Assembly: GCA_944392185.1 (NCBI GenBank)
Contig: CALXVW010000051.1
Span: 610-64,609, forward strand
DNA from: an uncultured Alphaproteobacteria bacterium
GTDB taxonomy: Bacteria; Pseudomonadota; Alphaproteobacteria; RF32; CAG-239
Direction of reading: 5' to 3'
DNA: 64,000 nucleotides
Shown: positions 1 to 28,415 of the stretch, piece by piece
Layout: each line of letters begins with the position of its first letter
Position numbering within the stretch: the first letter of the stretch is position 1
Position numbers and translations under genes: made by a program
The notes under the pieces: model-generated
Databases searched by the model: none
The model's input: only the letters and a program-made list of their open reading frames with translations
What the model was told of the DNA's origin: nothing

Positions 1-341
1 ACATACTGACTGATAAACATTTTCATCAGTTTATCTTTAGACGACATATCGGTTGTAATCGGCTCTTCTCTTACTATTTCTTCCGAGGCATCTTGATTAA
101 TAATCAAAAACGGCTCTACTGTTACCATTGGGGCTAAGCGGAACAGGGCCAAAGCTGAACTCATCAATAAAAGCAATGATGCTCCGGCTAAAAATATAAA
201 CAATCTAGACAGCCACAAATAATAGGTCAGCTTAGCTCCTTCACTTTCTTTTTCAAGATGATCCAAGAATTCCGGTGCTTGCCTTGAACCATCTTCAAGG
301 GCTAATGTTTGTCTGCCGTTTTCTATCTGATTTGGTGCCAT
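1..341 (-). CDS. virB8: VirB8-like T4SS inner-membrane protein, N-terminal part (gene continues past the window start)
   Basis: Manual reverse-complement translation from the ATG at 341 gives 113 codons without a stop: MAPNQIENGRQ...LTYYLWLSRLFIFLAGASLLLLMSSALALF (single TM helix)...VTVEPFLIINQD...MFISQYV. This is the VirB8/TrbF topology (short cytoplasmic N-terminus, one TM, periplasmic domain). An AGGAAG RBS lies upstream, with an in-frame TAA before it. The gene sits directly downstream of the virB4-linked genes on the same strand. Confidence 0.5.
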   Translation of the reverse strand, partial: MAPNQIENGRQTLALEDGSRQAPEFLDHLEKESEGAKLTYYLWLSRLFIFLAGASLLLLMSSALALFRLAPMVTVEPFLIINQDASEEIVREEPITTDMSSKDKLMKMFISQY

Positions 342-360
342 CGCTAAAAATTAACTTCCT

Positions 361-3300
361 CTAGTATGTTGCACAATAAGGCGCTTCCGGCAAATTGATG
401 CTATCTGAAGCCTTATTTAGACTATTTATAAATTTATCTGCCACGTCTTCATTTACTTTAGAGGTTTTTATTTCCTCGTCAAGATTATTCTGATCCTCTA
501 CTACACCACCAATAATTGTCATTTCTTCTTTATCTTTTTGTAATGCGCTAATTATGTTTTTTAAGCTTTCTATTCTTTCTGTAACAACATCATTGTCTAC
601 AATGTCAATTTCTTCTATTTGACTTAAAGCTTCCGTTATAGCGCTATTCTTTATATTATTCAGCTTATTCCTTACCAAATTATAATCACTTTCTTTAGCC
701 AAATCCAAACTTGATGATGGTTCATAACCATATTCTCGCAATGTAGCATACAATTTTTCAAGCAGTTCATTATATTGTTTTTCGGCTTCTTCTAATTGCT
801 CTTTCATGTTTCTTTCATTCTCAGCATAGACCAAAAACTCTCCTATTTGATTAAAGGCCAATGGTGCTCTATCATATGCTGCCAGTTTTTTCTTTTTATC
901 ATTACTTAATTCATCTTCAGAATTATTTAATTCGTCTAACAGAGTATAATATGCATTGTATGTTGGCTGACGGAATAACAAATTACCTTCATCATTAGCT
1001 TCAAATAATGTTCCCAGCTCACTGTATGCACAATCTTTTGAGTTCTCACCTTCTCCGTTGCCAAGCTTTATGCTTACTTCTCGGCGTGTATGATATATAT
1101 TTCCAGAGCGTGCCTCTATGTATGAACACTCCGGTAAATCTCCCGTGGCTGACGAACGGATATAATTTCCCTCTCCATCCATATCTACAATAATTGCAGA
1201 ATTTTTTACTTTACACGGCATTGCTCCTCCGCGGAAAAACGAAACCTGTGCACATCCCTCATTTAGCGCTTTTTTCAAATCCATATCTGCTTCAACATAG
1301 CTATGTGAACGCAGCATATATTGCCAAACCTTGGGAATTTCTCCTCCAACGTTCAAAAAATCAGAATTTAGAATCGTCGACGTCTTTGTATTGCCTTCTA
1401 CAAAAGGCTTTACATTCTGAAAATCTGTTTCATCAAAATGGAATACCTCTCTTAACGGCGGTAAATTTTCTATAAAAATTTCTTTGGGAGCTTTTAGATC
1501 TCTTGCCTTTGCCGGACGACCTACAAAATAGTCTTCTTCTTCCGCTGACGTATCTGCCGTTAACAATTTTCCGTACAACTCTATCCCTCGAATTGCCGAA
1601 ATTCCTATAGCATTCACACTTATCGCCATTGCCTTGATATCTTTTATCATGCTTTGATGTATTTGATCTATTTGCTCATGATATTCCGGATTATATAAAT
1701 TATCTCCTAAAGCAGAAATTTGCTTTCTCGCTTGGTTTACTCGCTCTTCTACTTGGCTATATAATGTATCCAGTGCTCTTTGAGCTGAATTTTCTAAGCC
1801 TTGGTAAACTGTCTCTGGTGTAACAATTAATCCAACCTCTTGGTTTAGAGGATAATCTTGCAAAATTGATAATAAATTACTTTTTACATCTTTGGCATAA
1901 TCACCATCTGATTTAGACAACATCTCCGCTGCTTGCTTTATTAAAGAACTTTTTGTTTCTTCCCTCGAAAGCCTTAATCCTAATATTCCTGACTGAGCTT
2001 TTAGCCGATAAGACTTTATCTTATTATCAAGTTCCTCAAGTTGTTTATCCAACGAACTGACAACTTGTTTTTGCCTCTCCACCTTCTTTTCTTGTTCTTC
2101 TATCCCTGATGAAGCCTTGTTCTCTGATACATTACTACTGAATGATGCTGAAAGCTCTTCATAATCTTCAACGGCTGCAATTGATGTATTTCCTGATGGG
2201 CTGGCTTCCAGGCTTGAAGGGAAATCTTCTTTTGCCGTAACTTTTTCTCTCATGGTGGCGCCGGCATCTTCTCTGGCTTGGTTTCTTAAATCTGAAAGGA
2301 CATCACTTTCCGTTTTCAGTTCGGCTGAGGCATTATCTAAACGACTGACCAAGGCCTTTCTTTGCGCTTGTAAAGCAGCCAGACCACTTTGATAATCCTC
2401 CTCATATCCCGACAATGTTTGCTCTCCTTTTGAATCTGCCTCTTGAATTTCTGTGGATAACTGCTCTTCCAGTGCAACGGCTTCTTTGCGCCGCAAAGTA
2501 TTGTCTATTGACGCTTCTCCTCCTTTTAGGCGCTCTGCAACGACAGCTAAAACATCATTTTTCGTGAACGAGGTTAAATAGCTTTTTATATTGGCATATT
2601 TTTTATCCAAATATTGATTGTAAAAGCTTTTTACGTCTTGCCAAACAGAAAACGCTGGTGTTTTCAGTTCTTTTCCCCATTTTGCGGAATCTGCCGCTAA
2701 CATCTTGGAGGCTTCAGATCCTATTTGCCAAGACAGCATACGACTTGCCCGAGCCTCTGCCACCGCCTTTTCTTCTTTGCTCTTTCCGGGGCTTAGGCTT
2801 CCTTGATCCTCAATCTCTGCCATGTTCTTTTTAGTATCTGTCGGATCTGACAAATCAACATTTTCATAATCTATATCCATCGCTATAATATCGCTGCTGC
2901 TGGTTTCCGTCGTCTCGGCTGCTTTTGCTGCCTCATAGGCTTTATATGCCCAGCCAGATATGCCGCTGCGTGAATCATAATCCGTAACATTGGCTCCTCC
3001 TCCCCATACACTTGAGGCATTGCTGAAGTGGCGACCAATATAACTTTTGGCGCAACTGTCTGCTTTTTTTAAAGAGATGAGTGCTTTCTCATATTTTTCT
3101 CTCATCTCCTGCACACTTTCCGCCGCATTCTTATAATCACTTAAGCCATGTATGAGATTGTGAACATCTCTGGCTTTATTGACCTCCTCATCTATAGGCT
3201 CAAGTTTGTCTAATTCTGCCATCTTATCTTCTTCATAGATATAGGCGTGTTTTTCTGGTGAGGCATCCGGAACAACAAATGTCAGCGCACCATCAACATA

Positions 3301-4308
3301 TTGTTGTGATTTATCATTAGATAGAGTAACGGCACTTTCAACTTGAGATAAAGATAAAACCGAGCTTTTTTCAGATTGTGTCATGCCTACTTGGGCAAAG
3401 CTCAAAAGTTCTGAATGGTGTATGGCCGCCTGTGCATAAACTTTACTCAATGGAAAGGCAAAAGCTTGTGTTTCCGTGCTTTGCTCTGATCCACCTTCTG
3501 CACCTGTGGCTTCTTCTGCCGCCGCAGCTTGTGCCGCTGCTTCTTCTGCTGCTCCAGATGTATCGGCTGTTTGATCTTTTACTCCTTCGACATAAGCCAA
3601 TGGTTTAGTTTGATAAATAACTTTTGCTGCAATAAATTGCGCTTTTAAGGCTGTTACCTTAAGCAAGGTCTGATATAAATTATCTACCGTCTTGAATGCC
3701 AAACCTTCCATAAATATAGCATCATTATTACCTTCCGGCGTGTTATCATTACCACAATCTGTTCTCTCCCCTTTTATACAACCAATGTTTTTATCAATAG
3801 TGGGTTGAATGTTTTGTTCTAATTCTTCTTGAAGTGCACCGGCTGCCGTAAAAATTTCAATTACTGTATCTTTGTAAAACTCTTCTTTATAATTTTCATA
3901 CTGTTGCTGTTCCAGCGTATCATTGCTCGGATATTGCAAAAATAGTATTTTGATCAAATCATAAACATTATCGGCCGAATCATTTTTATACTGTTTGCCC
4001 AAATACATGCAGGTTTCCATCGGTTTTTGCCCAGGTTGTAAAGAATAATTATTAATCAATGTGCTCATTTCACCATTATAAACCGACTTTGCTGCCGCTC
4101 GTAGATTGTTAATATTATCTTGGGTGGTTTTAATGTCTTTTTGTGTCTTGTTTGCCAAATCTGCCGAACCTTGAATATATGAAGCGGCTTCATCAACAAA
4201 ATCCGGCATTGGGTATGAATCTATTGCCAAACCCCAAAATGCTTGTGCCTTCCTACTTATCAGAAGAAGTGCCACACTCAAAAATATATATACATATTTT
4301 CTCATCAT
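361..4308 (-). CDS. 1315-aa secreted protein (signal peptide, acidic, largely alpha-helical/coiled-coil, no TM helices); T4SS-associated, function unknown
   Basis: The N-terminus MMRKYVYIFLSVALLLISRKAQA is a signal peptide. The long ORF is Glu/Lys/Ala/Ser-rich and contains low-complexity AAQAAAAEEATGAEGG. It is the last gene before the virB8-like gene in the minus-strand T4SS operon. Confidence 0.6.
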   Translation of the reverse strand: MMRKYVYIFLSVALLLISRKAQAFWGLAIDSYPMPDFVDEAASYIQGSADLANKTQKDIKTTQDNINNLRAAAKSVYNGEMSTLINNYSLQPGQKPMETCMYLGKQYKNDSADNVYDLIKILFLQYPSNDTLEQQQYENYKEEFYKDTVIEIFTAAGALQEELEQNIQPTIDKNIGCIKGERTDCGNDNTPEGNNDAIFMEGLAFKTVDNLYQTLLKVTALKAQFIAAKVIYQTKPLAYVEGVKDQTADTSGAAEEAAAQAAAAEEATGAEGGSEQSTETQAFAFPLSKVYAQAAIHHSELLSFAQVGMTQSEKSSVLSLSQVESAVTLSNDKSQQYVDGALTFVVPDASPEKHAYIYEEDKMAELDKLEPIDEEVNKARDVHNLIHGLSDYKNAAESVQEMREKYEKALISLKKADSCAKSYIGRHFSNASSVWGGGANVTDYDSRSGISGWAYKAYEAAKAAETTETSSSDIIAMDIDYENVDLSDPTDTKKNMAEIEDQGSLSPGKSKEEKAVAEARASRMLSWQIGSEASKMLAADSAKWGKELKTPAFSVWQDVKSFYNQYLDKKYANIKSYLTSFTKNDVLAVVAERLKGGEASIDNTLRRKEAVALEEQLSTEIQEADSKGEQTLSGYEEDYQSGLAALQAQRKALVSRLDNASAELKTESDVLSDLRNQAREDAGATMREKVTAKEDFPSSLEASPSGNTSIAAVEDYEELSASFSSNVSENKASSGIEEQEKKVERQKQVVSSLDKQLEELDNKIKSYRLKAQSGILGLRLSREETKSSLIKQAAEMLSKSDGDYAKDVKSNLLSILQDYPLNQEVGLIVTPETVYQGLENSAQRALDTLYSQVEERVNQARKQISALGDNLYNPEYHEQIDQIHQSMIKDIKAMAISVNAIGISAIRGIELYGKLLTADTSAEEEDYFVGRPAKARDLKAPKEIFIENLPPLREVFHFDETDFQNVKPFVEGNTKTSTILNSDFLNVGGEIPKVWQYMLRSHSYVEADMDLKKALNEGCAQVSFFRGGAMPCKVKNSAIIVDMDGEGNYIRSSATGDLPECSYIEARSGNIYHTRREVSIKLGNGEGENSKDCAYSELGTLFEANDEGNLLFRQPTYNAYYTLLDELNNSEDELSNDKKKKLAAYDRAPLAFNQIGEFLVYAENERNMKEQLEEAEKQYNELLEKLYATLREYGYEPSSSLDLAKESDYNLVRNKLNNIKNSAITEALSQIEEIDIVDNDVVTERIESLKNIISALQKDKEEMTIIGGVVEDQNNLDEEIKTSKVNEDVADKFINSLNKASDSINLPEAPYCATY

Positions 4309-5753
4309 CAGAACACTCCTATGGTTGAAGGATCTACATCTATATTATAATTTTTGCCTACACCTTGGGCTTCTTTTGCCATATCTTTGACCTGCTGATA
4401 TTGATCTGTTGCATTATTTATACCTGCTTTTACTTCGCTCGCCTTTTCTTGCGCCTTGCTAACATTTTCTTTTACCTGAGAAGCACTTTCTTGCAGTTTG
4501 TTTACTGATGACATTGCCTTGTCTGCTTTCTTCTTTAATCCTTCTGCCCCAACATTTGATGAATCCGTATAATTACAAAGATTGAATTTATCCTTTAGAG
4601 GGACTGAATTTATTCTTCGCAAGCTGTTTACTTCTATTGATGCTTGCAATTTTAGATCTGCCAAAACAACATCTATATAACTGCGCAAAATTTTCAACTG
4701 CTCCGTTAAGACCTCTGCACTAATTCCCGAACCTTCCGATTCTCCCGGCATAGTATCCCCCAAATCTTCTTTTGAATCTGTTTTTTCTTGTGTTATCGCT
4801 CTTGAAAGTTGTTTGTCTGCTTTAATTGTTGTGGTTTCTACAATTACATCGCTCAAAGCTTCTTTTCTTTGTTTTTTTATCTTATTTTCTTCTTTGATAC
4901 TTGGCGCCTTGTAAAATAAAAACTTATTTTGAGTTTCCTGCAACGCCTCTGATGTATCTTTCGTTTCTTTTTTTATTAGAGTGCTTGAACCACTTGCTTC
5001 CGACAGTTCTTGTGTTAATTTGGCAATTTTTTCGCTTTGCTCCAGAATTTTTTCTTCATATTCATCTTCAATATTTTCAAATTCGCTTTCATAGTCCTCC
5101 AATTGCATATCTAATTCATTTTGTATCTGTTCTATTTCTTCTTCTATTGTCTCCATTTCCGGACTTTTTTCTAGTTCTTTATCTTCTAATTTTGATAAAT
5201 CTCCTTCTGCTTTTGTCAAAATGACACCTTCTTCGCCATCTGTAGATGCTGTATCCTCCATACTTTGCTCTAAATTTGCAATGTTTTGCCTAACATTATT
5301 TATTTTGGCCGATGTTTGCTCTTTCAACAAATCCATTTCTGCTTGAATTGATTCTTGTTTCTTTAATTTCTCCTCTTGCAGTTCTTTTAGCTTTTGGCTC
5401 TCTTCTGCTATTTCTTTAGAAATCATGGCCGTTTTACATTCTTGGCTATTTAAAGTTGACTCCGTAACTTCTCCATATAGTTCCGAGTTCTTAGTTTGTA
5501 AGTCATCTGCATATGATATACCTTCTTTGGTATACTTAATTCCATCACCGACAAATTGACCAAATTGTGACGTTTGAATTCCCTCCAAAGTCTTTTCACA
5601 TGAGGCTTTTTGCGTTTGAAACCAAATCGAAAGTTTAGACGGCGTTTTGGTGGCATCAACTTTAGTAAATTGCGCTTGCACATCGGGAATGGTTGCAAAA
5701 AAAATGCTCCCAAAGAATAATACATTCAGCAATAAATATAAATTCCTCTTCAT
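4308..5753 (-). CDS. 481-aa secreted acidic coiled-coil protein (TrbJ/VirB5-like position), function unknown
   Basis: Signal peptide MKRNLYLLLNVLFFGSIFFATIPDVQAQ. Long heptad-like Glu/Lys/Gln-rich segments. Start overlaps the stop of the upstream gene (translational coupling). Confidence 0.55.
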   Translation of the reverse strand: MKRNLYLLLNVLFFGSIFFATIPDVQAQFTKVDATKTPSKLSIWFQTQKASCEKTLEGIQTSQFGQFVGDGIKYTKEGISYADDLQTKNSELYGEVTESTLNSQECKTAMISKEIAEESQKLKELQEEKLKKQESIQAEMDLLKEQTSAKINNVRQNIANLEQSMEDTASTDGEEGVILTKAEGDLSKLEDKELEKSPEMETIEEEIEQIQNELDMQLEDYESEFENIEDEYEEKILEQSEKIAKLTQELSEASGSSTLIKKETKDTSEALQETQNKFLFYKAPSIKEENKIKKQRKEALSDVIVETTTIKADKQLSRAITQEKTDSKEDLGDTMPGESEGSGISAEVLTEQLKILRSYIDVVLADLKLQASIEVNSLRRINSVPLKDKFNLCNYTDSSNVGAEGLKKKADKAMSSVNKLQESASQVKENVSKAQEKASEVKAGINNATDQYQQVKDMAKEAQGVGKNYNIDVDPSTIGVF

Positions 5754-6244
5754 TGCTCCGCCTCCTCTGATGTGCTATTGGATGTCGATACCTCATCCAT
5801 TCCGGCAAGCATTTGAGTACTTTGTAAATTTACTATTGCCGTTTCCAATTCTACAATTTGTTTCAGACGTAATGCTATGTTTTTTACTTGGCTCTTAACG
5901 TTGTTTTGAAGTATTTCTTGTTTATTGGTTGACCCCATTGTATTCTCAGAAACATCTTCGCCTCCGTCTTCATTGCTCATGCTTGCTCGAATCGACAAGG
6001 CCTCTGCATATAGTCTGGCCGCATATTCTGCTATGGTCTCTTGGGTCTTTTGGGACATCTCTTGAGCATCTGTTATGGTTCCTCTTTTGGGCGTGTTTTG
6101 TTCAATAATTATATTTATATTATCACTGACTTTTTGAGGATCTTCTATGTACGACGGAATCTCAAAGGCTCTTGTCTCTTTGATTATGAAAATACTGCTA
6201 CAAAGGATAATCAGCAAATTTATTTTCTTATTTTTCATCTGCAC
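5750..6244 (-). CDS. 164-aa secreted protein, T4SS operon member, unknown function
   Basis: Signal peptide MQMKNKKINLLIILCSSIFIIKETRA. Overlaps neighbouring genes by 4 nt (5750/5753) and 17 nt (6228/6244). Confidence 0.5.
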   Translation of the reverse strand: MQMKNKKINLLIILCSSIFIIKETRAFEIPSYIEDPQKVSDNINIIIEQNTPKRGTITDAQEMSQKTQETIAEYAARLYAEALSIRASMSNEDGGEDVSENTMGSTNKQEILQNNVKSQVKNIALRLKQIVELETAIVNLQSTQMLAGMDEVSTSNSTSEEAEQ

Positions 6245-7364
6245 TCTCCTTTATTGCTTGTTTTGATGCTCCAAAACTTTGACGACGGCTCTCTCTCAGC
6301 GCTTTTAACTTTGCCTCATCTCCCGCTTTTAACTCCGCCTGCAAATCTTCAATGGTTAACTGAGGACCTGCATTTTCTTTTCGCTCTTTTGCTTTGAGCT
6401 GATCGGACATCAATAATTGTTCTTCCAAATTAAATTCACTTGTGGCTTCTGAGGCTTCTACAACATCTTTATTTTCAACTTCACTCAATTCTAAAACTTC
6501 ATCCGCAGAAATTGTGGTCATCATTTGCGGGGTAGTCATTGCTGTGGGCAGCACGACATCGGTTACAACCCCTTCTTGTTCGGACGTCAATGCCTCTATG
6601 GCGGTCAATGCCTGATTTGACTCCGACGGCAACAAGGTTTTTGGAGAAGATATTTGATCTGTTTCTTCTTCACCTGGCTCCTCTGAGGTCTCTGAATCTT
6701 GTTCATCAACAACCATTGCCTCTGATGTTAAAGTCTTGGCTTCAGAAATCTCGTCATTGGCATTTGTTTCTTCTGATGAAGAGATTCCTGCTTTCTCTTT
6801 TGCCGTATCTAATGTACCGCTTGCTTTATCTTGTGCTGAATTTACAGTCCCTTCCGCCGCATCTTTTAGTGCCGATGCATTTTCTTTTGCATTTTCTAAT
6901 GCTGTTTTACCTTCTTCAACCTTATCTTTTGCTTCTTCAACCTTATCTTTTGCTTCTTCAACCTTCTTCATTGCATCGTCATATTTTTTCTTTAATTCAT
7001 CGGCTTTTTCCTTTAGCTCATTGGCTTTCTTAGTTAAAGCCTCTTTTTTTTCTTTTGCTTTCTCTGCCAACACTTTGGCTTTGTTATATTTTTCTTGAGC
7101 TTTATTATAGCGATCTTTTATTTTTTTTGCCTTCTTTGTCTTTTTTTGAACCTCATTAACATCTCCGAGTTCACCTATTTTGCTTTGAGTATATGTATTA
7201 GCATAATTGGCATATTCTTCTTGAACCGAACTTGCATCTTTTACCAAACCATTGGCGTAATCAACCGTATTTACTATTGGATCTGTTACTGCATAACAAC
7301 ATGTGCCGCCAAGCACTAAAAATAGCGCTGTCAAAATTATTCCATATGGCAGACGGCAAAACAT
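6228..7364 (-). CDS. 378-aa secreted Lys/Glu-rich coiled-coil protein, paralog of the 539-aa protein
   Basis: Signal peptide MFCRLPYGIILTALFLVLGGTCCYA. Carries a KDKVEEA tandem repeat and the motif AKEKAGISSSEE, shared with AKDKAGISTDKG in the 539-aa protein. Confidence 0.55.
   Translation of the reverse strand: MFCRLPYGIILTALFLVLGGTCCYAVTDPIVNTVDYANGLVKDASSVQEEYANYANTYTQSKIGELGDVNEVQKKTKKAKKIKDRYNKAQEKYNKAKVLAEKAKEKKEALTKKANELKEKADELKKKYDDAMKKVEEAKDKVEEAKDKVEEGKTALENAKENASALKDAAEGTVNSAQDKASGTLDTAKEKAGISSSEETNANDEISEAKTLTSEAMVVDEQDSETSEEPGEEETDQISSPKTLLPSESNQALTAIEALTSEQEGVVTDVVLPTAMTTPQMMTTISADEVLELSEVENKDVVEASEATSEFNLEEQLLMSDQLKAKERKENAGPQLTIEDLQAELKAGDEAKLKALRESRRQSFGASKQAIKESADEK
6911..6973. 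repeat. 21-bp coding tandem repeat (CTTCTTCAACCTTATCTTTTG, 2 perfect and 1 degenerate copy) inside the 378-aa gene
   Basis: Directly visible in the sequence. Encodes the KDKVEEA repeat. Confidence 0.7.
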
Positions 7365-8029
7365 TAATCTTTCTCCTCATTTTGCTCCGACAATCGATAT
7401 GGCGCATCATATCTAAAGAATGCCTCCATCATATCCAAGCCTACTCTTGTTGAATATATATCAATTACTTGCAACAAATTCTCTGAACTGCGTCCTGACA
7501 TTTTTATATTTTTTGTTTGTTTGGTTCGCAAATCACTGCCATCTGCAGCCGCCTCCCCTCCTGCTGCTGCAGAACCGCTTTGTACCTCGTTATCTTCTTC
7601 TAATTTTTCATCTCGGGTTGCTTCATAATTTCCTGCCGCAGATTTAGTCGTTAAGGCCTTTTCTAACGCATCTTTGCTTACCTGATGCATGACCTCTTGT
7701 TCAATATTTAAAAGATCCTTACCCTCTGCCGCAAGCTTATCCAAACACTCATTTAATTTATATTTATCTCTGCCCTCTTTTGAGGATATTCCACAATGCA
7801 TGGCTATCCGTTTAGGAATTATCAAATCTCCTGCAGGACCGGTTCCGTCATCCATCTCAACATCTGCGGCCGAAACTTGTTTCTCTTCTTCCTTTGATGT
7901 TTCATTTTCTTGGGCATAAACTATAGATACTGCAAAAATAAAACTTAGGCAGCATAACATCCTAAAATATGTCAGATGCCTATTCATCTTCATCTCCTGA
8001 TTCTGCCGGAACAAACGAATAACTGCCAT
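7364..8029 (-). CDS. 221-aa secreted protein sharing a Cys-containing domain with the 539-aa protein
   Basis: Internal hydrophobic segment LTYFRMLCCLSFIFAVSIVYAQ (probable signal peptide). Motif DLIIPKRIAMHCGISSKEGRDKYKLNECLDKL matches TVIIPRALAMYCGLSSSDALEENKMDECLLKL in the ORF at 7980-9599. Confidence 0.5.
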   Translation of the reverse strand: MAVIRLFRQNQEMKMNRHLTYFRMLCCLSFIFAVSIVYAQENETSKEEEKQVSAADVEMDDGTGPAGDLIIPKRIAMHCGISSKEGRDKYKLNECLDKLAAEGKDLLNIEQEVMHQVSKDALEKALTTKSAAGNYEATRDEKLEEDNEVQSGSAAAGGEAAADGSDLRTKQTKNIKMSGRSSENLLQVIDIYSTRVGLDMMEAFFRYDAPYRLSEQNEEKD

Positions 8030-9599
8030 AGTTATACAAACTTTGAACCATCAATTGAGAACTAAAAACCTTTAACAACCCGTTCATTTGCATATCTATG
8101 GCTTTGTTTAGCTCAACAATATTATCATATACTGCTTGAGCATCTAATTCTGGCGCAAATTCTACCGCATCAATAAAATTTTCTTCAAAACTGTCGGCAT
8201 CTTGTCTGGCCTTGTAAGCTTCTGCCATGCTCGCTGCCACATATTGTGCCAGTGCTTGATTGTAAACTTTTGGAGCATCACTTCCGGAAAATAATTGCGC
8301 ACTTTGCTTTTCTTTGTTTAATTTTAATAAACATTCATCCATTTTATTTTCTTCTAATGCATCACTTGAACTTAAACCACAATACATTGCCAGTGCCCGA
8401 GGAATAATGACCGTTCCGTTAGAATCCGTACCTCCATCCGGTAAGTTTAATAGCTCAACTTTAGCAAACATTAACGTTTCTGAGTGATGTAATGAAGATG
8501 TCGTAAAAGCTTTTCTTAGCTGAATATGCTCTGTCGGAACCGCAACCGATGGTTTCACTGTCTCTATTGGCGAAAGATCTTTTACCGCTTTTGTTTTTGC
8601 AGAATCTATTGTTGCTTTCTCTTGCTGTTTAATGCTTTTAGCCTCCATAATGGCCACTTCTGCTTCCGTTGCTTTTGATGCCGTTGTTTCGTCAACACTT
8701 ACTTGCTTATCTTGAATTTGTGATATTTTTGCCTTTAATGCATTTAGTTTCTGAGTTTCTTCTTCTGATAATGAATCCTTGCTTTCCAGTTGGTTGAAAG
8801 TATTTTGCTCTTCTTCTGTTAAGATTGATGATAATTCATTATTTGTCTTCTCTATTTTTGCATCCGTATCTGCTGCGTCCGTATCTGTGCCTGCTGCATC
8901 TGTGCCTGCCGCATCTGTGCCTGCCGCATCTGTGCCTGTATTATCTCCTTCAAACGGAATGCGGCTTGATGTTGGATCTGTTTCGGCAGCATTTTCCTTT
9001 GCTGTGTTCGTTTGGGCGTCTATTAAAACAGATTCATTTGTATCGGTAACAGCATCCGTCGTATCTGCTTCAACGTCTACCTCGGTGTCCGCTTTCTCTT
9101 CTTGTCCCTTATCTGTAGAAATTCCGGCTTTATCTTTAGCGGCATCTAGTTTACTATCCGCAACATCCTGAGCTGCAGAGGCTGTTTCTTTAGCCGTTTC
9201 AACTCCATCTTCTGCTTGCTCTTTTAGCTCTTTGGCCTTAGCAATGTTTTCATCTAATTGCTTTTTATATTGATCATACTCTTTTTTATACTCTTCTGCT
9301 TTCTTTTGATATTCTTGAACTTTTGCAATCTTTTCTTCCAATTTTTCTTTATTGGCTACTACATATTCTGAAACACTTTTTTTAGCCGTTCCTATGGCCG
9401 TACTGGTTTTTTGAACAGTTTGCATGGTGCCTACCACCGTCTTGCTTTCTTTAACTTCCGTAAACCATTGTTTAACTGTTTTTCCGGTACTTTGTGTATC
9501 CGTTACAACTGCTTGTGCCTGTACTTCTTCTGCACAAAAACCTATATACAGAAAGGCCAGAAAACCTCTCAGAAGTTTTTTCCAAAAACCTTTTTCCAT
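7980..9599 (-). CDS. 539-aa secreted acidic coiled-coil protein with TDAAG tandem repeat; helical C-terminus loosely VirB5/TraC-like
   Basis: Signal peptide MEKGFWKKLLRGFLAFLYIGFCAEEVQAQA. Contains in-frame 15-bp DNA repeats encoding (TDAAG)n. Shares two motifs with neighbouring paralogs. Sits immediately downstream of virB4. Confidence 0.55.
   Translation of the reverse strand: MEKGFWKKLLRGFLAFLYIGFCAEEVQAQAVVTDTQSTGKTVKQWFTEVKESKTVVGTMQTVQKTSTAIGTAKKSVSEYVVANKEKLEEKIAKVQEYQKKAEEYKKEYDQYKKQLDENIAKAKELKEQAEDGVETAKETASAAQDVADSKLDAAKDKAGISTDKGQEEKADTEVDVEADTTDAVTDTNESVLIDAQTNTAKENAAETDPTSSRIPFEGDNTGTDAAGTDAAGTDAAGTDTDAADTDAKIEKTNNELSSILTEEEQNTFNQLESKDSLSEEETQKLNALKAKISQIQDKQVSVDETTASKATEAEVAIMEAKSIKQQEKATIDSAKTKAVKDLSPIETVKPSVAVPTEHIQLRKAFTTSSLHHSETLMFAKVELLNLPDGGTDSNGTVIIPRALAMYCGLSSSDALEENKMDECLLKLNKEKQSAQLFSGSDAPKVYNQALAQYVAASMAEAYKARQDADSFEENFIDAVEFAPELDAQAVYDNIVELNKAIDMQMNGLLKVFSSQLMVQSLYNYGSYSFVPAESGDEDE
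8866..8940. repeat. 15-bp coding tandem repeat (about 5 copies, GCATCTGTGCCTGCC unit) inside the 539-aa gene
   Basis: Directly visible: gcatctgtgcctgcc twice in perfect form, plus degenerate copies on each side. Encodes TDAAG repeats. Candidate slipped-strand variable region. Confidence 0.7.
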
Positions 9600-9678
9600 T
9601 GCAACCTCCTGTATATAAATCTTATACTTTTATAATAGCACATTCTGCCATTCAAATAAATCCGTTTACTTTGTTTTC

Positions 9679-12108
9679 TTAAATATTTAAATATTTTGTA
9701 ACAAAGTTTTCTTCGCCATATTCTTTTATCAGTTCTTCTACCAATAAAACATTCTTGCGACCGGAATTATATAATCGTAAATATGGCCCCAATCCGCTTA
9801 AATCGACATCTAAAATTACGGATTCTCCTGTTGCCGGACGTGATAACAAAATTGCATACGGAAAATCTCGATAGCTCTTACCAAAAATAAAGTCTGTTTC
9901 CGCATTAGTTAAGTTCCAGTTCAAATAATCTTCCGGTGTTGCCTGCGGATTGCGAAAGAATATAACTGTCTGACACTGACCACGAATAACTTCGCCAACT
10001 CCCAACTTATCAATAATATTTGGTTGTTGGAATGCACACAAATAGGCCTGACGTTTTTTACGCCCTTCTTGCAAACCTATAACAAAATAGTCTCTAAACA
10101 TTGGGTGCTTTAACATCGGTGCCGTTTCATCTATCATGATTAAGGAGGGAACACCTGTTTCACCTGTTTCTGATTGAATACGATGCATAATATAGCTGAT
10201 TACTGCCGGAGCTAATGTCTCATCTTCAAAAATATGCGTAAAATCAAAAGCCATAAAACGCTTGGACTTAAGATCCAAACTATCGGTATCCGCATTGAAA
10301 ATTTTACCATATTGATCCGGATTTACCCATTTATATAGTTCTCTTCGCATGTTTCCTGTCGGTGAAAAACAGCTTTTATATAAATTGGTCATCATGCGTT
10401 CTTCTGGACGAAGGTAATCAAATGCTGTCGTCACCGCTCTAGCAATCTCTTTTTCAGAAACGGCATCATCTACTAAAGTAATGGCTCGCATCCACCGACG
10501 CAAAAACGCTCTGTTATTAACGTTATTCTCACAATCAAACGGGTTTAATGAAACATTCTTTTCATCACCTTCAAATCCAACATAGGCTCCGCCTATTGCG
10601 CGAGTAAATATCTCCGCACCACGATGTCTATCAAAGAAGAATACTCGCAAATCATTGTGACGCATTGCCTGTCCGGCTAAAAATGTTAACAGTGTTGTCT
10701 TTCCTTGCCCCGTCGGACCAATAATACAACAATGTGCAACAGCTGAATCTTCACTTGATACGTGGAATTGGAATCGATAGGCAGAACCAGATGCCGTGCG
10801 GAATACTGTTATTGCCCCCGGCCCCCAGTCACTTCTAGAAAATCCCTCTGATGGCTTATCAAACGAAATGGCGGCAGCAACAACTCTTGATAAATATCTA
10901 TATGTCCTCGGTAATGTTTCATAAGTCGGAAATTGGTTAAAAAATGTGGCTTGTGTGACCCAGCCTTCCCTTACCGGAGTAACACCAAATAAACGACATA
11001 TTCTCTGAACTTCACTTTCGGCAAACTCTATTTCTTCTAGGGTTTCTCCTTGCAAAAGAATGGCCATAGCATACTCAGTTAGAGACTGGTGATTGGTATC
11101 ACTATCTTCAATTGCGGCCAAAACTTCACCATATTGATCAATAACATCTCCCGAAAAGCTCGTCATTGTGGCCATTCTTTGTTGCTGCATTAATAAAGCT
11201 CTGGCGTGTGGCTTAAATATCGGGCGAACATTGTGTAGCAGAACCAATTCAGAGTCTATGGACAACAATGATGTTACCATACTCTCATCCATATAATCCC
11301 CTGAAGATCGAATTCCCATCACTATCTCAAATTTTTCCGTATCTCCTGAGAAAAATCTGATTATTCCGTTTTCTCCTGTAAAATGAATGTGATCTGCCGT
11401 CAGTAATTCATTCAAATGAGCTCCTTCCGCTCCATTAATTTTGGGTTGCGGCTTGGTTATCGGACTACAGATTTTCGCATAGACAGACAACGGACTATCT
11501 GCCGCAGAACTTCCTTCTGCCTCAAACAATGCCATTACACCATATTCATTTAATGTGGCTATCAATGCTTGAGATGCATAGTTAAGATCCTTTAGATTTT
11601 CATCTCTATCGGCAACGGATAATACGATATAGTGTGAATTATTATAAACCCTGCTTAAATTTGAGCTCCACACCTCATCTATATGTTCAAGCAAAGCATT
11701 TCCAAAATCACCCTTGCTTTCTTCTAAAGGAATGCGTTCTCTTAATGTAATCACACGACAAGTAACTTGCAAATCAGACATCCCGTCAATCCAAGCTTTG
11801 CGCGCCTCCAACATCGACATAACTTTCTCATCGGTCACAAAAGCCAGATCAACCCCCGTAACACGAAAAACTCTGGCCAGAGAGCCATTATAACAACGAA
11901 TCGTCATTCCATCTGACAGCAACTTACTAAAAGGTAAAAAGTCAGAAACCCTTGACTCTCTTGGTTGCGGCAGCACATAATAGCCAAATTTCGTTACCCA
12001 AAATCCGGCAAATGCCGCGGCAGAGATAAATCCTATTACGGCGACTAAAACTTCTAAGTTTGTCAGACCTTGCACAAATGTGCTAAAAAAATCAAAATCA
12101 GGGTGCAA
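9679..12108 (-). CDS. virB4: Type IV secretion system ATPase VirB4/TrbE
   Basis: 809 aa. N-terminal TM segments. Walker A GPTGQGKTT and Walker B-like LIMIDETAP. Size and topology are typical of VirB4. Overlaps virB3 by 11 nt. Confidence 0.85.
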   Translation of the reverse strand: MHPDFDFFSTFVQGLTNLEVLVAVIGFISAAAFAGFWVTKFGYYVLPQPRESRVSDFLPFSKLLSDGMTIRCYNGSLARVFRVTGVDLAFVTDEKVMSMLEARKAWIDGMSDLQVTCRVITLRERIPLEESKGDFGNALLEHIDEVWSSNLSRVYNNSHYIVLSVADRDENLKDLNYASQALIATLNEYGVMALFEAEGSSAADSPLSVYAKICSPITKPQPKINGAEGAHLNELLTADHIHFTGENGIIRFFSGDTEKFEIVMGIRSSGDYMDESMVTSLLSIDSELVLLHNVRPIFKPHARALLMQQQRMATMTSFSGDVIDQYGEVLAAIEDSDTNHQSLTEYAMAILLQGETLEEIEFAESEVQRICRLFGVTPVREGWVTQATFFNQFPTYETLPRTYRYLSRVVAAAISFDKPSEGFSRSDWGPGAITVFRTASGSAYRFQFHVSSEDSAVAHCCIIGPTGQGKTTLLTFLAGQAMRHNDLRVFFFDRHRGAEIFTRAIGGAYVGFEGDEKNVSLNPFDCENNVNNRAFLRRWMRAITLVDDAVSEKEIARAVTTAFDYLRPEERMMTNLYKSCFSPTGNMRRELYKWVNPDQYGKIFNADTDSLDLKSKRFMAFDFTHIFEDETLAPAVISYIMHRIQSETGETGVPSLIMIDETAPMLKHPMFRDYFVIGLQEGRKKRQAYLCAFQQPNIIDKLGVGEVIRGQCQTVIFFRNPQATPEDYLNWNLTNAETDFIFGKSYRDFPYAILLSRPATGESVILDVDLSGLGPYLRLYNSGRKNVLLVEELIKEYGEENFVTKYLNI

Positions 12109-12388
12109 ATTTATTCCCCTTTACTTTATAAAGGTTATGAGATGTTTTGGCGGTTTGCCCGTAGGCTTGTATCATTGCTGATATGTGAGGCTCTTTTGCG
12201 CCAATAGCAATACAGATAATATGTCCGATGACCAAAGTAGCCATAAAAACCAACGGATTGATGTCAAATGTCCCCAAGAACATAAACATCATCGGAAACT
12301 GGATACCCATATTGAGCATCGTCGGCAAAAACGGCCCCCATAGTATCTTGGGCGGATTGGCTACGGCTTTTAATATAATTTCGCGCAT
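12098..12388 (-). CDS. virB3: Type IV secretion system protein VirB3/TrbD
   Basis: 96 aa. LKAVANPPKILWGPFLPTMLNMG followed by a hydrophobic helix matches the VirB3 pattern. Overlaps and precedes virB4. Confidence 0.7.
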   Translation of the reverse strand: MREIILKAVANPPKILWGPFLPTMLNMGIQFPMMFMFLGTFDINPLVFMATLVIGHIICIAIGAKEPHISAMIQAYGQTAKTSHNLYKVKGNKFAP

Positions 12389-12490
12389 CGTTTCAATCCC
12401 TGCATTGTTACTAATATTATGATACAGCTCTCATTTTTTTATGCAACACCCATAAAAAGGTTATCCCTTGCTTTCATCCAAATACATAAA

Positions 12491-12522
12491 AAAGAGGCAT
12501 TCTTACTACCTAGAATACCTCT
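12491..12522. terminator. Bidirectional rho-independent terminator between the giant virB2-fusion gene and virB3
   Basis: aaaaaagaggcattcttactacctagaatacctctttttt is an imperfect 10-12 bp stem flanked by A-run and T-run. It lies 40 bp downstream of the 1514-aa gene stop (minus strand). Confidence 0.55.
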
Positions 12523-12561
12523 TTTTTATGAATAATGCGTTAACTTTTACTTGTCAGAAGT

Positions 12562-15500
12562 TTATTTTCCCTCAAGCTCAAGTTGGCGGGCATATGCTTC
12601 GTTATACTTCACATCAGCGGCGTTCCTACGCTTAATTTCTTTTTCTAAAGTTGATTGAGCTTCTTGATATTGTCGCTCTGCACTTAGATAGTTATCTCTA
12701 GCAGCTACCAGAGCATTCATATGACTTGGGCTGTTGTTTCCGCTCTCATACTCCTTTATTAAGCGCTGCAATTCTGCCTCTGCTCGTGTTTTATTTGTTT
12801 CTGCGGCACTCACTGCAGCACGATATTCCGGAATATTCCGCTCTGCTGTGGCTTTTTCTTCTTTTGCTTGAGCTTGAATATATTTGCTCTCCTCCAGAGA
12901 TGCCTCCTTAGCTTTTTGCTCCAGCTCTTTGAGCGGTTCTTGCGCCTTTTCCGCTTTTTCTGCTGCCTGACGCGCTTCTTCTTGAGCTAGATTTGCTTGC
13001 TTTTGGAGTGTCTCTGCCTTAGCTTTTTCGCTTGGTGTTTGGGCTTCTTGCGCTGCTCTTTCTGCCGCAGCCCTCAATTCTTCAGCTTTTTTAGCTTTGG
13101 TTTCTGCATCATTCTTGGCTTGCCCCGCAGCTATCTCTGCTCGATTGTATATATCATTTATCTTTTCGGCTCTATCTACCGGATTGGATATACTATTCAG
13201 CTGTTGCTCCAATCTTTCAGCCTCTTGAGCTCTCCGCTGCTCTTCTTGCCTTGCTTGATCCTCTTTTTCTTGTGTCCATCCCGTATCTCTTTCTGCTTCA
13301 AGTTTGCTTTGCTCCGTTTTGGCTTCTAGAGCTTTTTGTGCTGCCTCTTGAGCTTTTTTCTTCTCATTCTCAGCAACCGTTTTCGTATTATTATAATCCC
13401 TTTCGGCTGCCTTGAGCGCATCGTCCGCAGCCCCCAGCTGTTTTAAGGAATCCTCATACGCCTTTTGTTTAGCTTTATTACCAGGATCTGACTTGAGATC
13501 TTCTTGCGCAGCCAGAGCGGCTTGCTCCGCCTGTTTCTTTTGGCTCTCAGCTTGTTCGGCTGCAAGCTTCTTATCCGCTAAAGACTGTGCTGCTTGCTCT
13601 GCTTTAGCCTTGGCCTCTTCAGCCTCCTTTGACGCAGCTATCTGTTCATCTTTTGCATTGTTAATCCCCTCTTCTAGAGACTGCTGATACAAGTCATCCA
13701 ACGGCGCTTTGGCTTCTTCTGCCTTTTGACGTGCCTCTTGCGCTGTTGACTTTGCCGTTTCGGCTACTGCCTTAGCTGCTGAAGCTTCATTTTTGGCTAT
13801 TTGCGCCCGATTGGCTAGACTTTCTGCCTTTTGCTTATCTTCTGCCGAGCCACTCTGAGCGGCTTTTTCTGCGGCGGCTTGTGCTTGCTGCGCCAGTTGA
13901 TCTGCTCTATTTTGAGCTTGACTTGCTTCGTTTTCTAGTCTTTGAGCCGTGCGCTCTGCCCCGGTGGCTTCGGCCTCTGCGGCTTGAGCCTCTGCTTGAG
14001 CATTTTGATATGCTTGAGAGCTTTGATTCTTGTCATTTGATTGCGAGGTATTAGAGCTTAAATCATTTAAAAGCCCCTCACCCTTCTTTATTTGTTGCTG
14101 TTCCGTCCGTTTGGCTTCTGCCTTAGCGGCCTCTTTTTTAGCTTCTGCAGCTCGCTTCTCTGCTTGGCGCTCCTGGCGGCCTTCATTGATACTCTTTGAA
14201 CCAAAAGCACTGAAATTTGCTGCCGCTCCAACAAGCGCTCCGGCCGTCTGGGTGGTATCCTGAACTTTTTGATTGACCTGATTCGATTTTTGAACAACAT
14301 TATTGGTAATGTCCATAAACCCTAGCTGTCCAGTGTTTTGCATATTTTTCTTGTTGCTCGCTATATCTCCTTCTATTGCATTACCTTTATCGTCAAAGCC
14401 GCTCTTCTTTACAACAACATTGCCATCTTTATCATATTCAAGATTTCCACCCCAACGATGCTCTACTCCGGTTACGTTACCATCCTCATCTCGGGTAACT
14501 TTTTGTCCCATCAATGCTGCCGTAAAGCCCCCTGTCGCTTCTCCCTTATCTCGACGGGCTTGCAATTCTGCTTGCTCATCTCGGCTCTTTGACATATCTT
14601 GAACATTGTTGGCTATATCTATGGTATTGGACATTACGTTGCTCATCATACCACCGGTAGAGCCAACTATGGCGTTAACATTTTGACCAATTTGACCCAA
14701 GGCATTGAAGCTATCTTCAAGATTGCCTTCTCCTATCTTATCTATGGCATCTCCTATGTTATTGGCTGCAAATTTGACACTTTCAACCGTATTTTTAACC
14801 GTATCTACCGTGTTTTGAACCTTCTTGGCCGTATCAACAGCCTTTTTACCGGCAGAAATCAAATCTTTTACACAGCTGGCAAATCCACCGCCGCCAAATA
14901 ATCCGCCTCCTTTTTGTTCTGCCTCACAAAAACCTCTGGTTTCCGTTTTCTTCTCTTCTTCCGCTGGCGGCTCTACCGATGTATCCGGCGTTTCAACAAG
15001 TTCAGGCGGCATATATGGTGTCATCTCATCTACCCACGCATATTCCGTATCGGCAAAAGCTCCGTGCAAATGATCTCCAAATTCGCTTGGCTTTTCCGTG
15101 GCTGCCAAATCCCTATTATCTACGGTATAAACCATGTATTCTATTAAACGACCCATATTGGCTACCAAGAATAAGCTAATGGCTATATTGGCAAACCATT
15201 TCCAGCTGATCTTATTGAATATGGCCATGAATGCAAAGGCTATTAAACCAAAGCCAGCAAATACATAGACTATCGGTTTTAATCCGACTAAAATTCTCGC
15301 CGCACGGCGTGTCAAGGTCGTAAATACATCGCCGGTATTGGAATAGTCTATTGTTCCAATATATTTTCCCGTAAATCGCTTATTTTCAACTCCCGAATCT
15401 TTAGCACTGCTAAAGGCTCTATATTCTTGACCAAAGTGTTCTCCTCCAAAATCATTTGCCATATCGCGCATTATATCCATAGCATCTTGCGCCATTCGAG

Positions 15501-17106: not shown

Positions 17107-17169
17107 GGCGTCCTCCTATGTTCTATCTTCTAGCCATTGTTGCTGACTATTTTATTGCCATTTCTTGTG

Positions 17170-18102
17170 CTACTTCAGAGTATCTGTTATCATGGTGGCG
17201 GTGAACTCATCGCAACCGGTTATCATGTTTATTATCTCTCCGGTGGTGGCTATTACAACCAAAGCTATGATTATGGCTCCCAGCCACTTCCAGTTTAAGT
17301 TTCCGAAAAATCCTCCTACGGCCACTCCTATAATACCAAATCCCGCAACAACATATATCAAATCTCTTAGACCATTAAATATTTTGCTTCCTGTATCAAT
17401 TAAACCGGAGAATATACCATAATCGCTGGAACAACCTGTTATCGCCGAATCCGGCTGATGATCATTACCTGAAGAAGTAATCTGCTCACAGACACCGTTT
17501 ACCTTCTGATATCCATCAGGACATTTTTCTTCTTGTTCACCTTGCTTGTTTTGTTCATCTTGTTCTTTTTCGGGAACATTTTTATCTTCTTCTGCTTTTT
17601 TAGCCTCTTCAGCTTTTCTCTCTTCTTCAGCTTTTTTTGCTTCTTCAGCTTTTTTTGCTTCTTCAGCTTTTTTTGCTTCTTCTGCTTTTCTTGCTTCTTC
17701 TGCTTGTCTAATCTCTTCTGCTCTTTTTGCTGCCGCCTCTTTTAGAGCTTCCTCTCTCTTTTTTTGAGAACTTTCAGAATAATAATCCAACTCATCAAAC
17801 TCTTCTTGGCTGGATTTCTGAATGTTTTCATCTTTTATCTTTTGCTTTAGATCTTTTGCATAACTTTTTACCGCTTCAATTCTTATGCCTTTCTCATTAA
17901 AACGATAAAATGTTCTGCCATTGTCAGACAGCCATTTAACCCCTTCATCCTCTACAATATAGCCGCCCTCTGATTTGGCAAAAACAACGCCCGGAACCAT
18001 CATGGTGCTGACAAATACTGCCAAAAGTATTATTTGGCATATCTTCTTCAAATTTATCATTGCACCCTCCCGCTTAATTTCTTTCTTGTCCTTTAATATC
18101 AA
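17170..18102 (-). CDS. 310-aa VirB2-domain protein with N-terminal coiled-coil extension carrying (EEAKKA)n repeats
   Basis: N-terminal hydrophobic segment ICQIILLAVFVSTMMVPGVVFA after the first 20 residues (probable signal peptide). KAEEAKKAEEAKKAEE repeats encoded by 18-bp DNA repeats. C-terminal VirB2-like hairpin with the NWKW loop motif. Confidence 0.6.
   Translation of the reverse strand: MILKDKKEIKREGAMINLKKICQIILLAVFVSTMMVPGVVFAKSEGGYIVEDEGVKWLSDNGRTFYRFNEKGIRIEAVKSYAKDLKQKIKDENIQKSSQEEFDELDYYSESSQKKREEALKEAAAKRAEEIRQAEEARKAEEAKKAEEAKKAEEAKKAEEERKAEEAKKAEEDKNVPEKEQDEQNKQGEQEEKCPDGYQKVNGVCEQITSSGNDHQPDSAITGCSSDYGIFSGLIDTGSKIFNGLRDLIYVVAGFGIIGVAVGGFFGNLNWKWLGAIIIALVVIATTGEIINMITGCDEFTATMITDTLK
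17586..17700. repeat. 18-bp coding tandem repeat (TTCTTCAGCTTTTTTTGC, 3 perfect copies plus degenerate copies) in the 310-aa VirB2-domain gene
   Basis: Directly visible. Encodes the EEAKKA heptad-like repeat. The poly-T tract inside each unit is a potential slippage site. Confidence 0.7.
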
Positions 18103-18237
18103 CCAGCCAGACTGATTGATGTTAAAAGAAAGGGGGATAGGCTAAGCGGTTTCCCGTTTTTCCAAGACCCCCTTTGCCCTCTTCCTTGTTTGGATCGGGC
18201 TGCAAATCGCAGCCCGAAACCAAAACGAAGGAGAAGA

Positions 18238-18853: not shown

Positions 18854-18889
18854 ATTTTGATTTATCAAGTCTTTAGAGGGGTTTATTTT

Positions 18890-20578: not shown

Positions 20579-20635
20579 TAAGTCTTGAGAGGCGCTTGAT
20601 TATTTATTTTTCAGTATGTATGATAGGAAAAAAAT

Positions 20636-22964: not shown

Positions 22965-22983
22965 TTCACTAAGGAGAAAACTG

Positions 22984-25576: not shown

Positions 25577-25582
25577 TGTTCA

Positions 25583-27271: not shown

Positions 27272-27282
27272 GGGAAATAATA

Positions 27283-28413: not shown

Positions 28414-28415
28414 TA

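Follow-up and report, generated by a model that had tools for sequence, protein, structure and literature searches.

Organization of the type IV secretion locus

The window analysed here is a 64,000-nucleotide stretch of the genome of an uncultured alphaproteobacterium (contig CALXVW010000051.1, positions 610 to 64,609). Positions 1-18579 of its minus strand form a single, tightly packed operon of a VirB-type type IV secretion system (T4SS), transcribed in the order virB2, p310, p1514, a virB3-like gene, virB4, six open reading frames (ORFs) and a fragment of virB8a. The six ORFs between virB4 and virB8a are the subject of this work. An earlier note, made from the sequence alone, had described them as signal-peptide proteins of 164-1315 amino acids (aa) between virB4 and a virB8-like gene, and this description was confirmed. 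The six genes, named after the length of their products, and the two genes that flank them are listed below in the order of transcription.

virB4: 9679-12108, minus strand; matches TIGR00929 with E 2e-113; 98% and 81% identical to the orthologs in the related loci L001 and L002, respectively
p539: 7980-9599, minus strand; 539 aa, signal peptide, family 1 joined by an acidic linker to family 2
p221: 7364-8029, minus strand; 221 aa, stand-alone family-2 module
p378: 6228-7364, minus strand; 378 aa, family-1-like N-terminal coiled coil with a unique acidic C-terminal half
p164: 5750-6244, minus strand; 164 aa, family 3
p481: 4308-5753, minus strand; 481 aa, family 4, acidic and helical
p1315: 361-4308, minus strand; 1315 aa, family 5 joined by an Ala/acidic linker to family 6
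virB8a: 1-341, minus strand; N-terminal 113 codons, truncated at the window edge; Pfam VirB8 with E 6.5e-4, orthologs carry PF04335

The first gene of the block, p539, begins 80 nt past the virB4 stop codon, and p1315 is separated from virB8a by a gap of about 20 nt. Within the block, adjacent genes share 1 to about 50 nt according to the annotation and 1-11 nt when ortholog-supported starts are used. Two annotated starts are likely too early: that of p221 by 14 codons, with orthologs aligning from M15 (start 7987, 207 aa), and that of p164 by two codons, with orthologs aligning from M3 (start 6238, 162 aa). The six genes are translationally coupled, with each other and with virB8a, inside a virB2-virB11 operon. 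Orthologs were found in 5-79 loci, depending on the gene (79 for the p1315 family). Since, in addition, the nonsynonymous substitution rate (dN) is far below the synonymous rate (dS), we regard all six genes as real.

Conservation of the six-gene block in related genomes

In seven loci with complete context, in which identity to p1315 falls from 99% to 24%, the same six-slot block lies between virB4 and virB8a. The operon of the relatives continues beyond the part seen in the window. Its order is VirB2-domain genes, VirB3, VirB4, six exported proteins, VirB8a (252 aa), VirB7, VirB8b (241 aa), VirB9, a beta-flower protein, a VirB10-like protein and VirB11. The VirB9/CagX protein has about 550 aa and a C-terminal SPOR domain (L009, region 5952-15465; also L001 and L083-L086). 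It is followed by a beta-flower/RHS-repeat protein of 1113-1240 aa, whose sole transmembrane (TM) segment is N-terminal. A further beta-flower/RHS-repeat protein, of about 1510 aa and ending in a TrbI/VirB10 domain, precedes VirB11.

A homolog search with p1315 returned 23 proteins, and repeating it with the p1315 alignment gave the same 23. Look-ups by exact sequence gave no match for the VirB4 of the window, for p1315 or for the 100%-identical P0024. The homologs are full-length across the whole range of identity, from 99% down to 24%. With the C-terminal 1004 residues of p1315 as the query, HMMER found 245 cluster representatives, 125 of them at E <= 1e-30. Nearly all representatives of this family have 1200-1800 aa.

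The VirB10-like gene was found in 112 species-representative genomes, nearly all of them metagenome-assembled genomes labelled uncultured Alphaproteobacteria, Azospirillum sp. or Rhodospirillales. The names of 80 listed contigs among these 112 relatives point to human, primate, rodent and ruminant guts. The clade that carries this T4SS is taken here to be the GTDB order RF32. No homologs of the six proteins were found outside the clade, and no description of this T4SS was found in the literature searched. The comparison shows that all six families persist, in constant order, over deep divergence, with sequence, linker length and gene boundaries changing fast. We conclude that this uncultured gut lineage has elaborated its VirB-type T4SS in a way that is real, conserved and so far undescribed.

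Relationships among the six proteins

The earlier note had presented the six proteins as paralogs forming an expanded family. Paralogy was tested by all-against-all BLASTP among the six and by hhalign between the families. BLASTP confirmed that the two sequence motifs quoted in support of that view, one shared by p221 and p539 and the other by p378 and p539, are real. The p539/p378 match (38% identity over 145 aa, E 1e-11) spans AK(E/D)KAGIS. This stretch is a K/E/A-rich coiled coil of biased composition, and the match is lost with SEG filtering. The p539/p221 match (46% identity over 43 aa, E 1e-9) covers the IIPxxxAMxCG...ECL motif. All remaining pairs gave E > 0.004, including a marginal 23-aa match between p1315 and p539, HHSE(L/T)L(S/M)FA(Q/K)V, with E 0.02. 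The hhalign comparisons between families returned mostly signal-peptide matches or short stretches of 26-63 columns. Only the p539/p378 and p539/p221 pairs are therefore significant, and the view of one expanded paralogous family has to be replaced by that of six families.

A divergent sister clade (L002, L085) helped to define these families. Its block consists of six separate genes, whose products in slots 1-6 have 309-319, 321-368, 240-242, 388-389, 222-235 and 1216-1225 aa. Compared with this arrangement, p539 corresponds to slot 1 (the N-terminal coiled coil) plus slot 2 (the C-terminal Cys domain). A further copy of the slot-2 module makes up p221, and p378 joins a further copy of the slot-1 module to a unique tail. 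The p164 and p481 proteins correspond to slots 3 and 4, and p1315 to slot 5 (aa 1-240), an Ala/acidic linker and slot 6 (aa 312-1315). The alignments indicate that the block is made of six distinct families, with two modules duplicated. The p539 and p1315 proteins look like fusions; the difference may have arisen by fusion in this lineage or by fission in the sister clade.

The motif (H)xSExLxFA(Q/K)(V/A) sits at the junctions of the fused modules in both p1315 (window positions 3375-3450) and p539 (8450-8520). Speculatively, it could be a relic signal peptide of a once-separate downstream gene.

Properties of the six proteins

All six proteins are acidic and hydrophilic, with isoelectric points of 4.5-4.9 and grand average of hydropathy values of -0.44 to -0.77. 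In each, the N-terminus is hydrophobic and leads into a site of the AxA type (VQA|Q, VYA|Q, CYA|V, TRA|F, VQA|Q and AQA|F). TM and hydrophobic segments were sought with the Kyte-Doolittle scale, using a window of 19 and a cut-off of 1.6. By this measure the N-termini of p1315, p164 and p539 fall below the cut-off, and past the N-terminus no hydrophobic segment appears in any of the six. A canonical lipobox was not found in any of them, the smallest protein having 162 aa. Several of the six have conserved cysteine pairs, a feature to be expected of proteins with extracytoplasmic folding. Together, the N-terminal features and the cysteine pairs suggest that the six proteins are exported by the Sec pathway.

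Scans of the six proteins with Pfam and NCBIfam returned only coiled-coil noise, assigned no family and found no enzymatic or toxin domain. Neither the rest of the window nor the related loci retrieved contained further copies of the six genes.

The AlphaFold2 model of p539 has an overall predicted local distance difference test score (pLDDT) of 55. It consists of a 105-aa helix, two disordered acidic regions (residues 159-247 and 326-377) and, at residues 378-527, a helical domain, which is predicted as three long helices with a pLDDT of about 70-77. Foldseek comparison of this model gave no specific structural neighbour, and no VirB5 structure was among the matches. The fold typical of VirB5/TraC is a three-helix bundle with a globular appendage. 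The two cysteines of the motif shared with p221, C407 and C423, are invariant in 41 homologs. In p1315, three cysteines are invariant and six more nearly so. The C-terminal part of p1315 was predicted with a pLDDT of 78.8 as helical bundles, with helices of about 80 residues, and a Cys-containing beta-rich domain.

Most of the p1315-family representatives end in P(Y/F)CAxY. This terminal P(Y/F)CAxY-COOH motif (window positions 361-378) is nearly invariant in the family (members P0065-P0210), and its candidate roles are a sorting signal, a disulfide or a docking motif.

Evolutionary rates and a strain-variable repeat

The six proteins are the fastest-evolving components of the operon. Between loci L001 and L084 they are 42-49% identical, compared with 95% for VirB3 and VirB4, 94% for VirB7, 89% for VirB9, 77-83% for VirB8a and VirB8b, and 67-79% for the beta-flower proteins. 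When the window is compared with L001, the six genes show a dN of 0.11-0.27 and virB4 one of 0.015, so that the six evolve about 8-18 times faster. The dN/dS ratio was dropped as a test of diversifying selection, dS being saturated; for the same reason the apparent ratios of 0.03-0.18 show only overall purifying selection.

The acidic linker of p539 contains a tandem repeat, which is the following feature.

GTDAA repeat: 8879-8938; 15-bp tandem repeat in the acidic linker of p539, four copies in the window

In the near-identical strain represented by P0025, p539 is longer by 20 residues, made of GTDAA-type units. The two proteins share about 99% identity over the aligned residues, or 95% when the gap is counted, so that the copy number of the repeat differs between near-identical strains. 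The fastest evolution in the operon and the strain-variable repeat are compatible with exposed components.

Relation to VirB5 and to plasmid-borne systems

A Sec-exported protein encoded right behind virB4 is characteristic of VirB5/TraC. Here this gene is p539, whose product has a hydrophobic N-terminus with the site VQA|Q, and its mature N-terminus, AQAVVTDTQS, is VirB5-like. The mature N-termini of the slot-1 orthologs, AFGIPVLD and FGIPSIDVQSL, resemble those of verified plasmid VirB5 proteins, AGIPVIDPT and AQVPVLD. The VirB5 family (PF07996) did not match any of the six proteins or ten orthologs at E <= 1-10, and a local VirB5 hidden Markov model (HMM) gave E >= 0.06 with the six. The sensitivity of PF07996 is low, since a verified relative, Ea_B5, is assigned to it (E 6.8e-7) with a score of only 30 bits. 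With hhalign, p164, p481, p221/p539C and p1315N gave weak alignments of about 90-100 columns with the C-terminal half of VirB5, at P 0.002-0.02 in at least one run and probabilities of 3-15%; reversed controls gave P 0.1-0.5. The best of these weak matches was that of p164 (P 0.0018-0.02 over about 90 columns, against about 0.12-0.36 for the reversed controls).

When the p164 family and the N-terminal family of p1315 were run as profiles against PDB sequences, nothing matched. A verified VirB5 query gave none either, and this negative is uninformative on VirB5 because a true VirB5 also retrieves no VirB5 structure. No VirB5 fold was recovered in the structure comparisons. The family searches assigned none of the six to VirB5 or VirB6; confident hits to unrelated families without a T4SS link, which the earlier note had named as evidence against its reading, did not appear either. 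In their position after virB4, Sec signal, all-helical elongated build and fast evolution, the six resemble the VirB5/TraC/TrbJ family (PF07996), as they do in the (G/Q)IPVxD-like start of the slot-1 orthologs and the weak C-terminal-half alignments. They differ from it in being six proteins instead of one, in reaching 1315 aa, in their long acidic disordered linkers and in the lack of a Pfam or structural match. On the sequence evidence, VirB5 ancestry of at least one of the six is plausible, with the chances roughly even.

The closest VirB4 proteins in the plasmid collection PLSDB (35-39% identity) belong to plasmids of Microvirga, Erythrobacter and Sphingosinicella. There, VirB4 is followed by VirB5, a hydrophilic protein of 420-450 aa at the VirB6 position, and VirB7. 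The VirB7 proteins of these plasmids and of the clade have the motif GIG...LK(S/T)PCAC in common. In hhalign comparison, the plasmid hydrophilic protein also proved to be VirB5-like (probability 95%, E 1.7e-8), and the lineage therefore tends to put extra VirB5-type proteins at this place. These plasmid systems are alike to the one studied here in the closest VirB4, in the VirB7 motif and in having hydrophilic proteins, not a polytopic VirB6, between virB5 and virB7. Unlike it, they are conjugative, with a MobA/MobL relaxase and VirD4, a single VirB8 and core proteins of normal size. Their slot holds only two hydrophilic proteins, to which a 228-aa three-TM protein is added in Microvirga, and these have no detectable sequence similarity to the six.

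This plasmid arrangement is seen at L087 17351-20558, L088 17415-20114 and L089 11412-14015, and no polytopic ORF was found within 9-15 kb at these three loci. Azospirillum argentinense has a displaced VirB6 gene, which lies on the opposite strand about 5 kb upstream (L096 1371-2693).

VirB7 and VirB6

The earlier note had placed the six proteins in the slots of virB5, virB6 and virB7. For virB7 this is not so. In the relatives (L001, L002 and L083-L086), VirB7 is a 62-aa lipoprotein with an LSGC lipobox, encoded between virB8a and virB8b. It lies just beyond the window edge, and the six genes therefore fill the virB5-virB6 position only.

The statement that the interval holds no polytopic VirB6 was borne out. 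Proteins of the VirB6/TrbL family have four to six or more hydrophobic helices. An ORF with at least three TM segments was not found in the six-gene interval, and in the whole 64-kb window only the VirB2-like p310 and a T2SSF protein reach that number. A VirB6 HMM, built from four plasmid VirB6 proteins, had no significant match in the window. Pfam TrbL (PF04610) matched none of the six, and their hhalign comparison with plasmid VirB6 gave P 0.3-0.6. A polytopic VirB6 is absent from the T4SS operon of the relatives as well. The idea that p1315 is a degenerate extended VirB6 was ruled out: none of the 146 p1315-family representatives is polytopic or has a TM segment, and hhalign found no VirB6 similarity.

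The same HMM was used to search 1.9 Mb of related loci. It matched ORFs of 470-700 aa with four to nine hydrophobic segments, many of them cut at the locus end; these candidates sit near the downstream ends of many loci. Pfam TrbL/VirB6 (PF04610) recognizes them with E 1e-5 to 1e-3, and the L058 candidate scores 25.9 bits, which is the gathering cut-off. This strength is comparable to that of bona fide plasmid VirB6 controls (27.9 and 23.2 bits). With jackhmmer, this extended VirB6 family, which has a long hydrophilic tail, was found in 33 loci, including L007-L010, the nearest to the window with a full flank. In the two loci measured, L029 and L009, the gene lies 6-7 kb beyond virB11, and it may be on either strand. 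The earlier note had left VirB6 either elsewhere or absent. The first part is supported by these genes downstream of virB11, and the second is very unlikely; a T4SS without VirB6 fails as an explanation for the clade because relatives encode the extended TrbL/VirB6. As the window ends inside virB8a, the VirB6 position would be more than 20 kb past its left edge, and an extended VirB6 in this particular genome is inferred from synteny. VirD4 was not found in the operon or in the stretch of about 8-9 kb that follows virB11 (L009, L029).

The interval between virB11 and VirB6 (L029 16773-22319; L009 16491-23568) contains four or five genes at conserved positions without a Pfam match, and one or two double-helix-turn-helix regulators. 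The genes of this interval may be further parts or substrates of the system.

Other genes of the operon and its surroundings

The genes transcribed ahead of virB4 are as follows.

virB2: 18238-18579, minus strand; canonical pilin, 113 aa, Pfam TrbC with E 7.5e-10
p310: 17170-18102, minus strand; C-terminal VirB2/TrbC domain after a repeat-containing coiled coil
p1514: 12562-17106, minus strand; VirB2/TrbC two-TM pilin domain at aa ~587-657, within long coiled-coil arms
virB3-like gene: 12098-12388, minus strand; 96-aa membrane protein without a Pfam match, assigned by position, TM segment and 95-98% conservation

In the related Microvirga plasmid, the gene at the position of the virB3-like gene is annotated as VirB3 family. 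The pilin domain of p310 and p1514 is that of VirB2 (blastp, 1e-13 to 1e-17), which gives three VirB2-domain genes in the operon. In p1514, about 590 aa precede the pilin domain and 860 aa follow it. The arms are rich in K, E, A and Q, as they are in p310, and orthologs of these coiled-coil proteins range from 388 to 1878 aa between species. An internal tandem repeat array of p310 (17586-17731), with an 18-bp unit that is also seen as 36 and 54 bp, encodes a repeated K/E/A motif.

Divergent from the T4SS operon, the plus strand carries a type IVb pilus operon at 18857-30819. It encodes TcpQ, a secretin, PilO, a T2SSE ATPase, T2SSF, two bundlin/PilS-type pilins and a second T2SSE ATPase. Near the pilus/T4SS region, a protein with a eukaryote-like Ser/Thr protein kinase domain (Pkinase, E 7.6e-11) is encoded at 33395-34867 on the plus strand. 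The region 38640-45240 begins with tRNA-Ser(GGA), followed by a large serine recombinase (39726-41375, minus strand), a ParB-N6/N4 methylase (42008-43339) and a terminase large subunit (43696-45240); it is probably an integrated phage-like element. A defence island occupies positions 50920-59448, in a stretch of low GC content (27-32%). It contains a MerR-fused C5 cytosine methylase (50920-52221, minus strand), a pair of an OLD-family ATPase and a UvrD helicase that resembles Gabija (54168-57661), and GmrSD (57688-59448, minus strand).

Discussion

Several known systems offer comparisons for the locus. The rvh system of Rickettsiales has a duplicated virB8 flanking virB7, an extended VirB6, no VirB5 and an array of polytopic VirB6 paralogs after virB4. 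The system studied here resembles it as a chromosomal, effector-type system of Alphaproteobacteria with virB7 between duplicated virB8 genes, several VirB2-domain genes, an extended VirB6, no recognisable VirB5 and a multi-gene array after virB3-virB4. Unlike in rvh, this array consists of six non-membrane proteins, the single VirB6-like gene seen is in another place, and virD4 does not follow virB11. The Trw system of Bartonella contains recent tandem duplicates of recognisable genes, including virB2, virB5, virB6 and virB7. Both systems have multiple VirB2-domain genes and partly duplicated modules in the virB5 region; here, in contrast to Trw, only two modules are duplicated, partially and with divergence (38-46% over 43-145 aa), and virB6 and virB7 are single and outside the block. 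The Cag system of Helicobacter has system-specific Sec-exported proteins, CagH/CagI/CagL (associated with the pilus) and Cag3/CagM (accessories of the core), as well as giant VirB10 and VirB9 proteins. Our system is similar to it in having giant VirB10 and VirB9 proteins, system-specific exported proteins without homologs elsewhere and a conserved C-terminal motif in one family (here P(Y/F)CAxY). It differs in gene order and composition, and there is no sequence or fold similarity.

The explanation we favour, to which we give not quite an even chance, is that the six proteins are exported apparatus subunits (of a stalk, tip or appendage) that fill the VirB5 position. The stalk of a T4SS is made of VirB6 and VirB5, with VirB5 placed on a VirB6 platform in small systems, and expanded systems have larger central cylinders (review, PMC12857230). 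The six would be Sec-exported structural subunits of a chromosomal, much-enlarged VirB-type T4SS that is conserved in uncultured Alphaproteobacteria of the gut and rumen, in which they would build an elongated periplasmic stalk and/or a distal tip or appendage. Some of them may be very divergent derivatives of VirB5. Long helices of about 80-105 residues, by estimate roughly 12-15 nm, would span the greater distance across the envelope to which the giant VirB9-SPOR, beta-flower and beta-flower-VirB10 proteins point. The exposed, fast-evolving parts would be the acidic repeat linkers and the Cys-stabilised heads, and VirB6 would be supplied by the separate extended TrbL/VirB6 gene downstream of virB11. 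Several points weigh against this explanation. The VirB5 profile signal is weak and shifts with larger alignments (to P 0.35 for p221/p539C and to P 0.1 for p1315N). Coiled-coil and disordered proteins evolve fast without selection for diversity. Signal peptides were assessed by eye and by hydropathy, and both the localisation of the six and their association with the machine are predictions.

The proteins could also be accessory subunits of an enlarged outer-membrane/periplasmic core complex, like Cag3/CagM/CagT or the extra ring proteins of Dot/Icm. The strong enlargement of the core proteins (the 550-aa VirB9 with SPOR, the 1113-1240-aa beta-flower protein and the beta-flower-TrbI VirB10 of about 1510 aa) agrees with such a role, as does the restriction of the six to the clade, which recalls the Cag accessory proteins, and the failure to recover a VirB5 fold. 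We nevertheless consider it unlikely, because the core proteins of the operon are well conserved (VirB7 94% and VirB9 89%, against 42-49% for the six), ring subunits do not usually have long single helices or long acidic disordered linkers, and the location right after virB4 together with the weak VirB5 signals favours a stalk or tip.

Another possibility is that the six are cargo, exported by Sec, assembled in the periplasm and then exported by the T4SS in a second step, like pertussis toxin by Ptl. In that case they would be secreted effectors or a complex resembling a toxin. The Ptl system has neither VirD4 nor VirB5, and the Sec-delivered subunits that it exports are encoded in its own operon (PMC12857230). 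The failure to find VirD4 in the operon or in the surveyed 8-9 kb beyond virB11 of L009 and L029 is the main argument for cargo, and Sec-type N-termini in all six and the fast evolution expected of host-interacting effectors point in the same direction; VirD4 could, however, be encoded elsewhere in the genome. The genes lie within the structural virB4-virB8 block and are translationally coupled, instead of forming a separate upstream cassette. Moreover, the six-family set is present in all seven complete loci, and the p1315 family in 79 loci, as would be expected of machine parts. No enzymatic or toxin domain was found, and an elongated coiled-coil architecture is more typical of structural proteins. 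These facts make cargo distinctly unlikely. It is highly improbable that the six have no relation to the T4SS and simply ride in its operon as proteins of the surface or the periplasm, for example as an adhesin or an S-layer-like coat. Such proteins could well be acidic, fast-evolving and repeat-containing, with one repeat variable between strains, and the adjoining type IVb pilus operon makes the region resemble a surface-structure island; yet in very divergent genomes the genes strictly keep their place between virB4 and virB8a, with stop and start codons that overlap, and further copies are absent from the rest of the window and from the related loci retrieved.

The locus offers natural variants of the VirB5/VirB6 stalk, which is the least understood part of the T4SS: an extended VirB6 in a displaced position, six exported proteins of no known family at the VirB5 position, and VirB2 domains fused to very large coiled coils. 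A broader proposal, possible although rather doubtful, is that the system represents a new architectural class of giant T4SS, vertically inherited in abundant, uncultured Alphaproteobacteria of human and animal guts. Its central stalk and tip would be built not from one VirB5 but from six clade-specific exported proteins, some of them VirB5 derivatives diverged beyond recognition, in combination with a displaced extended VirB6 and giant VirB2-domain fusions. If this proposal is true, the T4SS is probably used for contact with host or protist cells. The presence of a conserved chromosomal T4SS beside a type IVb pilus suggests that these uncultured gut bacteria touch other cells, which would change the view of this widespread gut clade.

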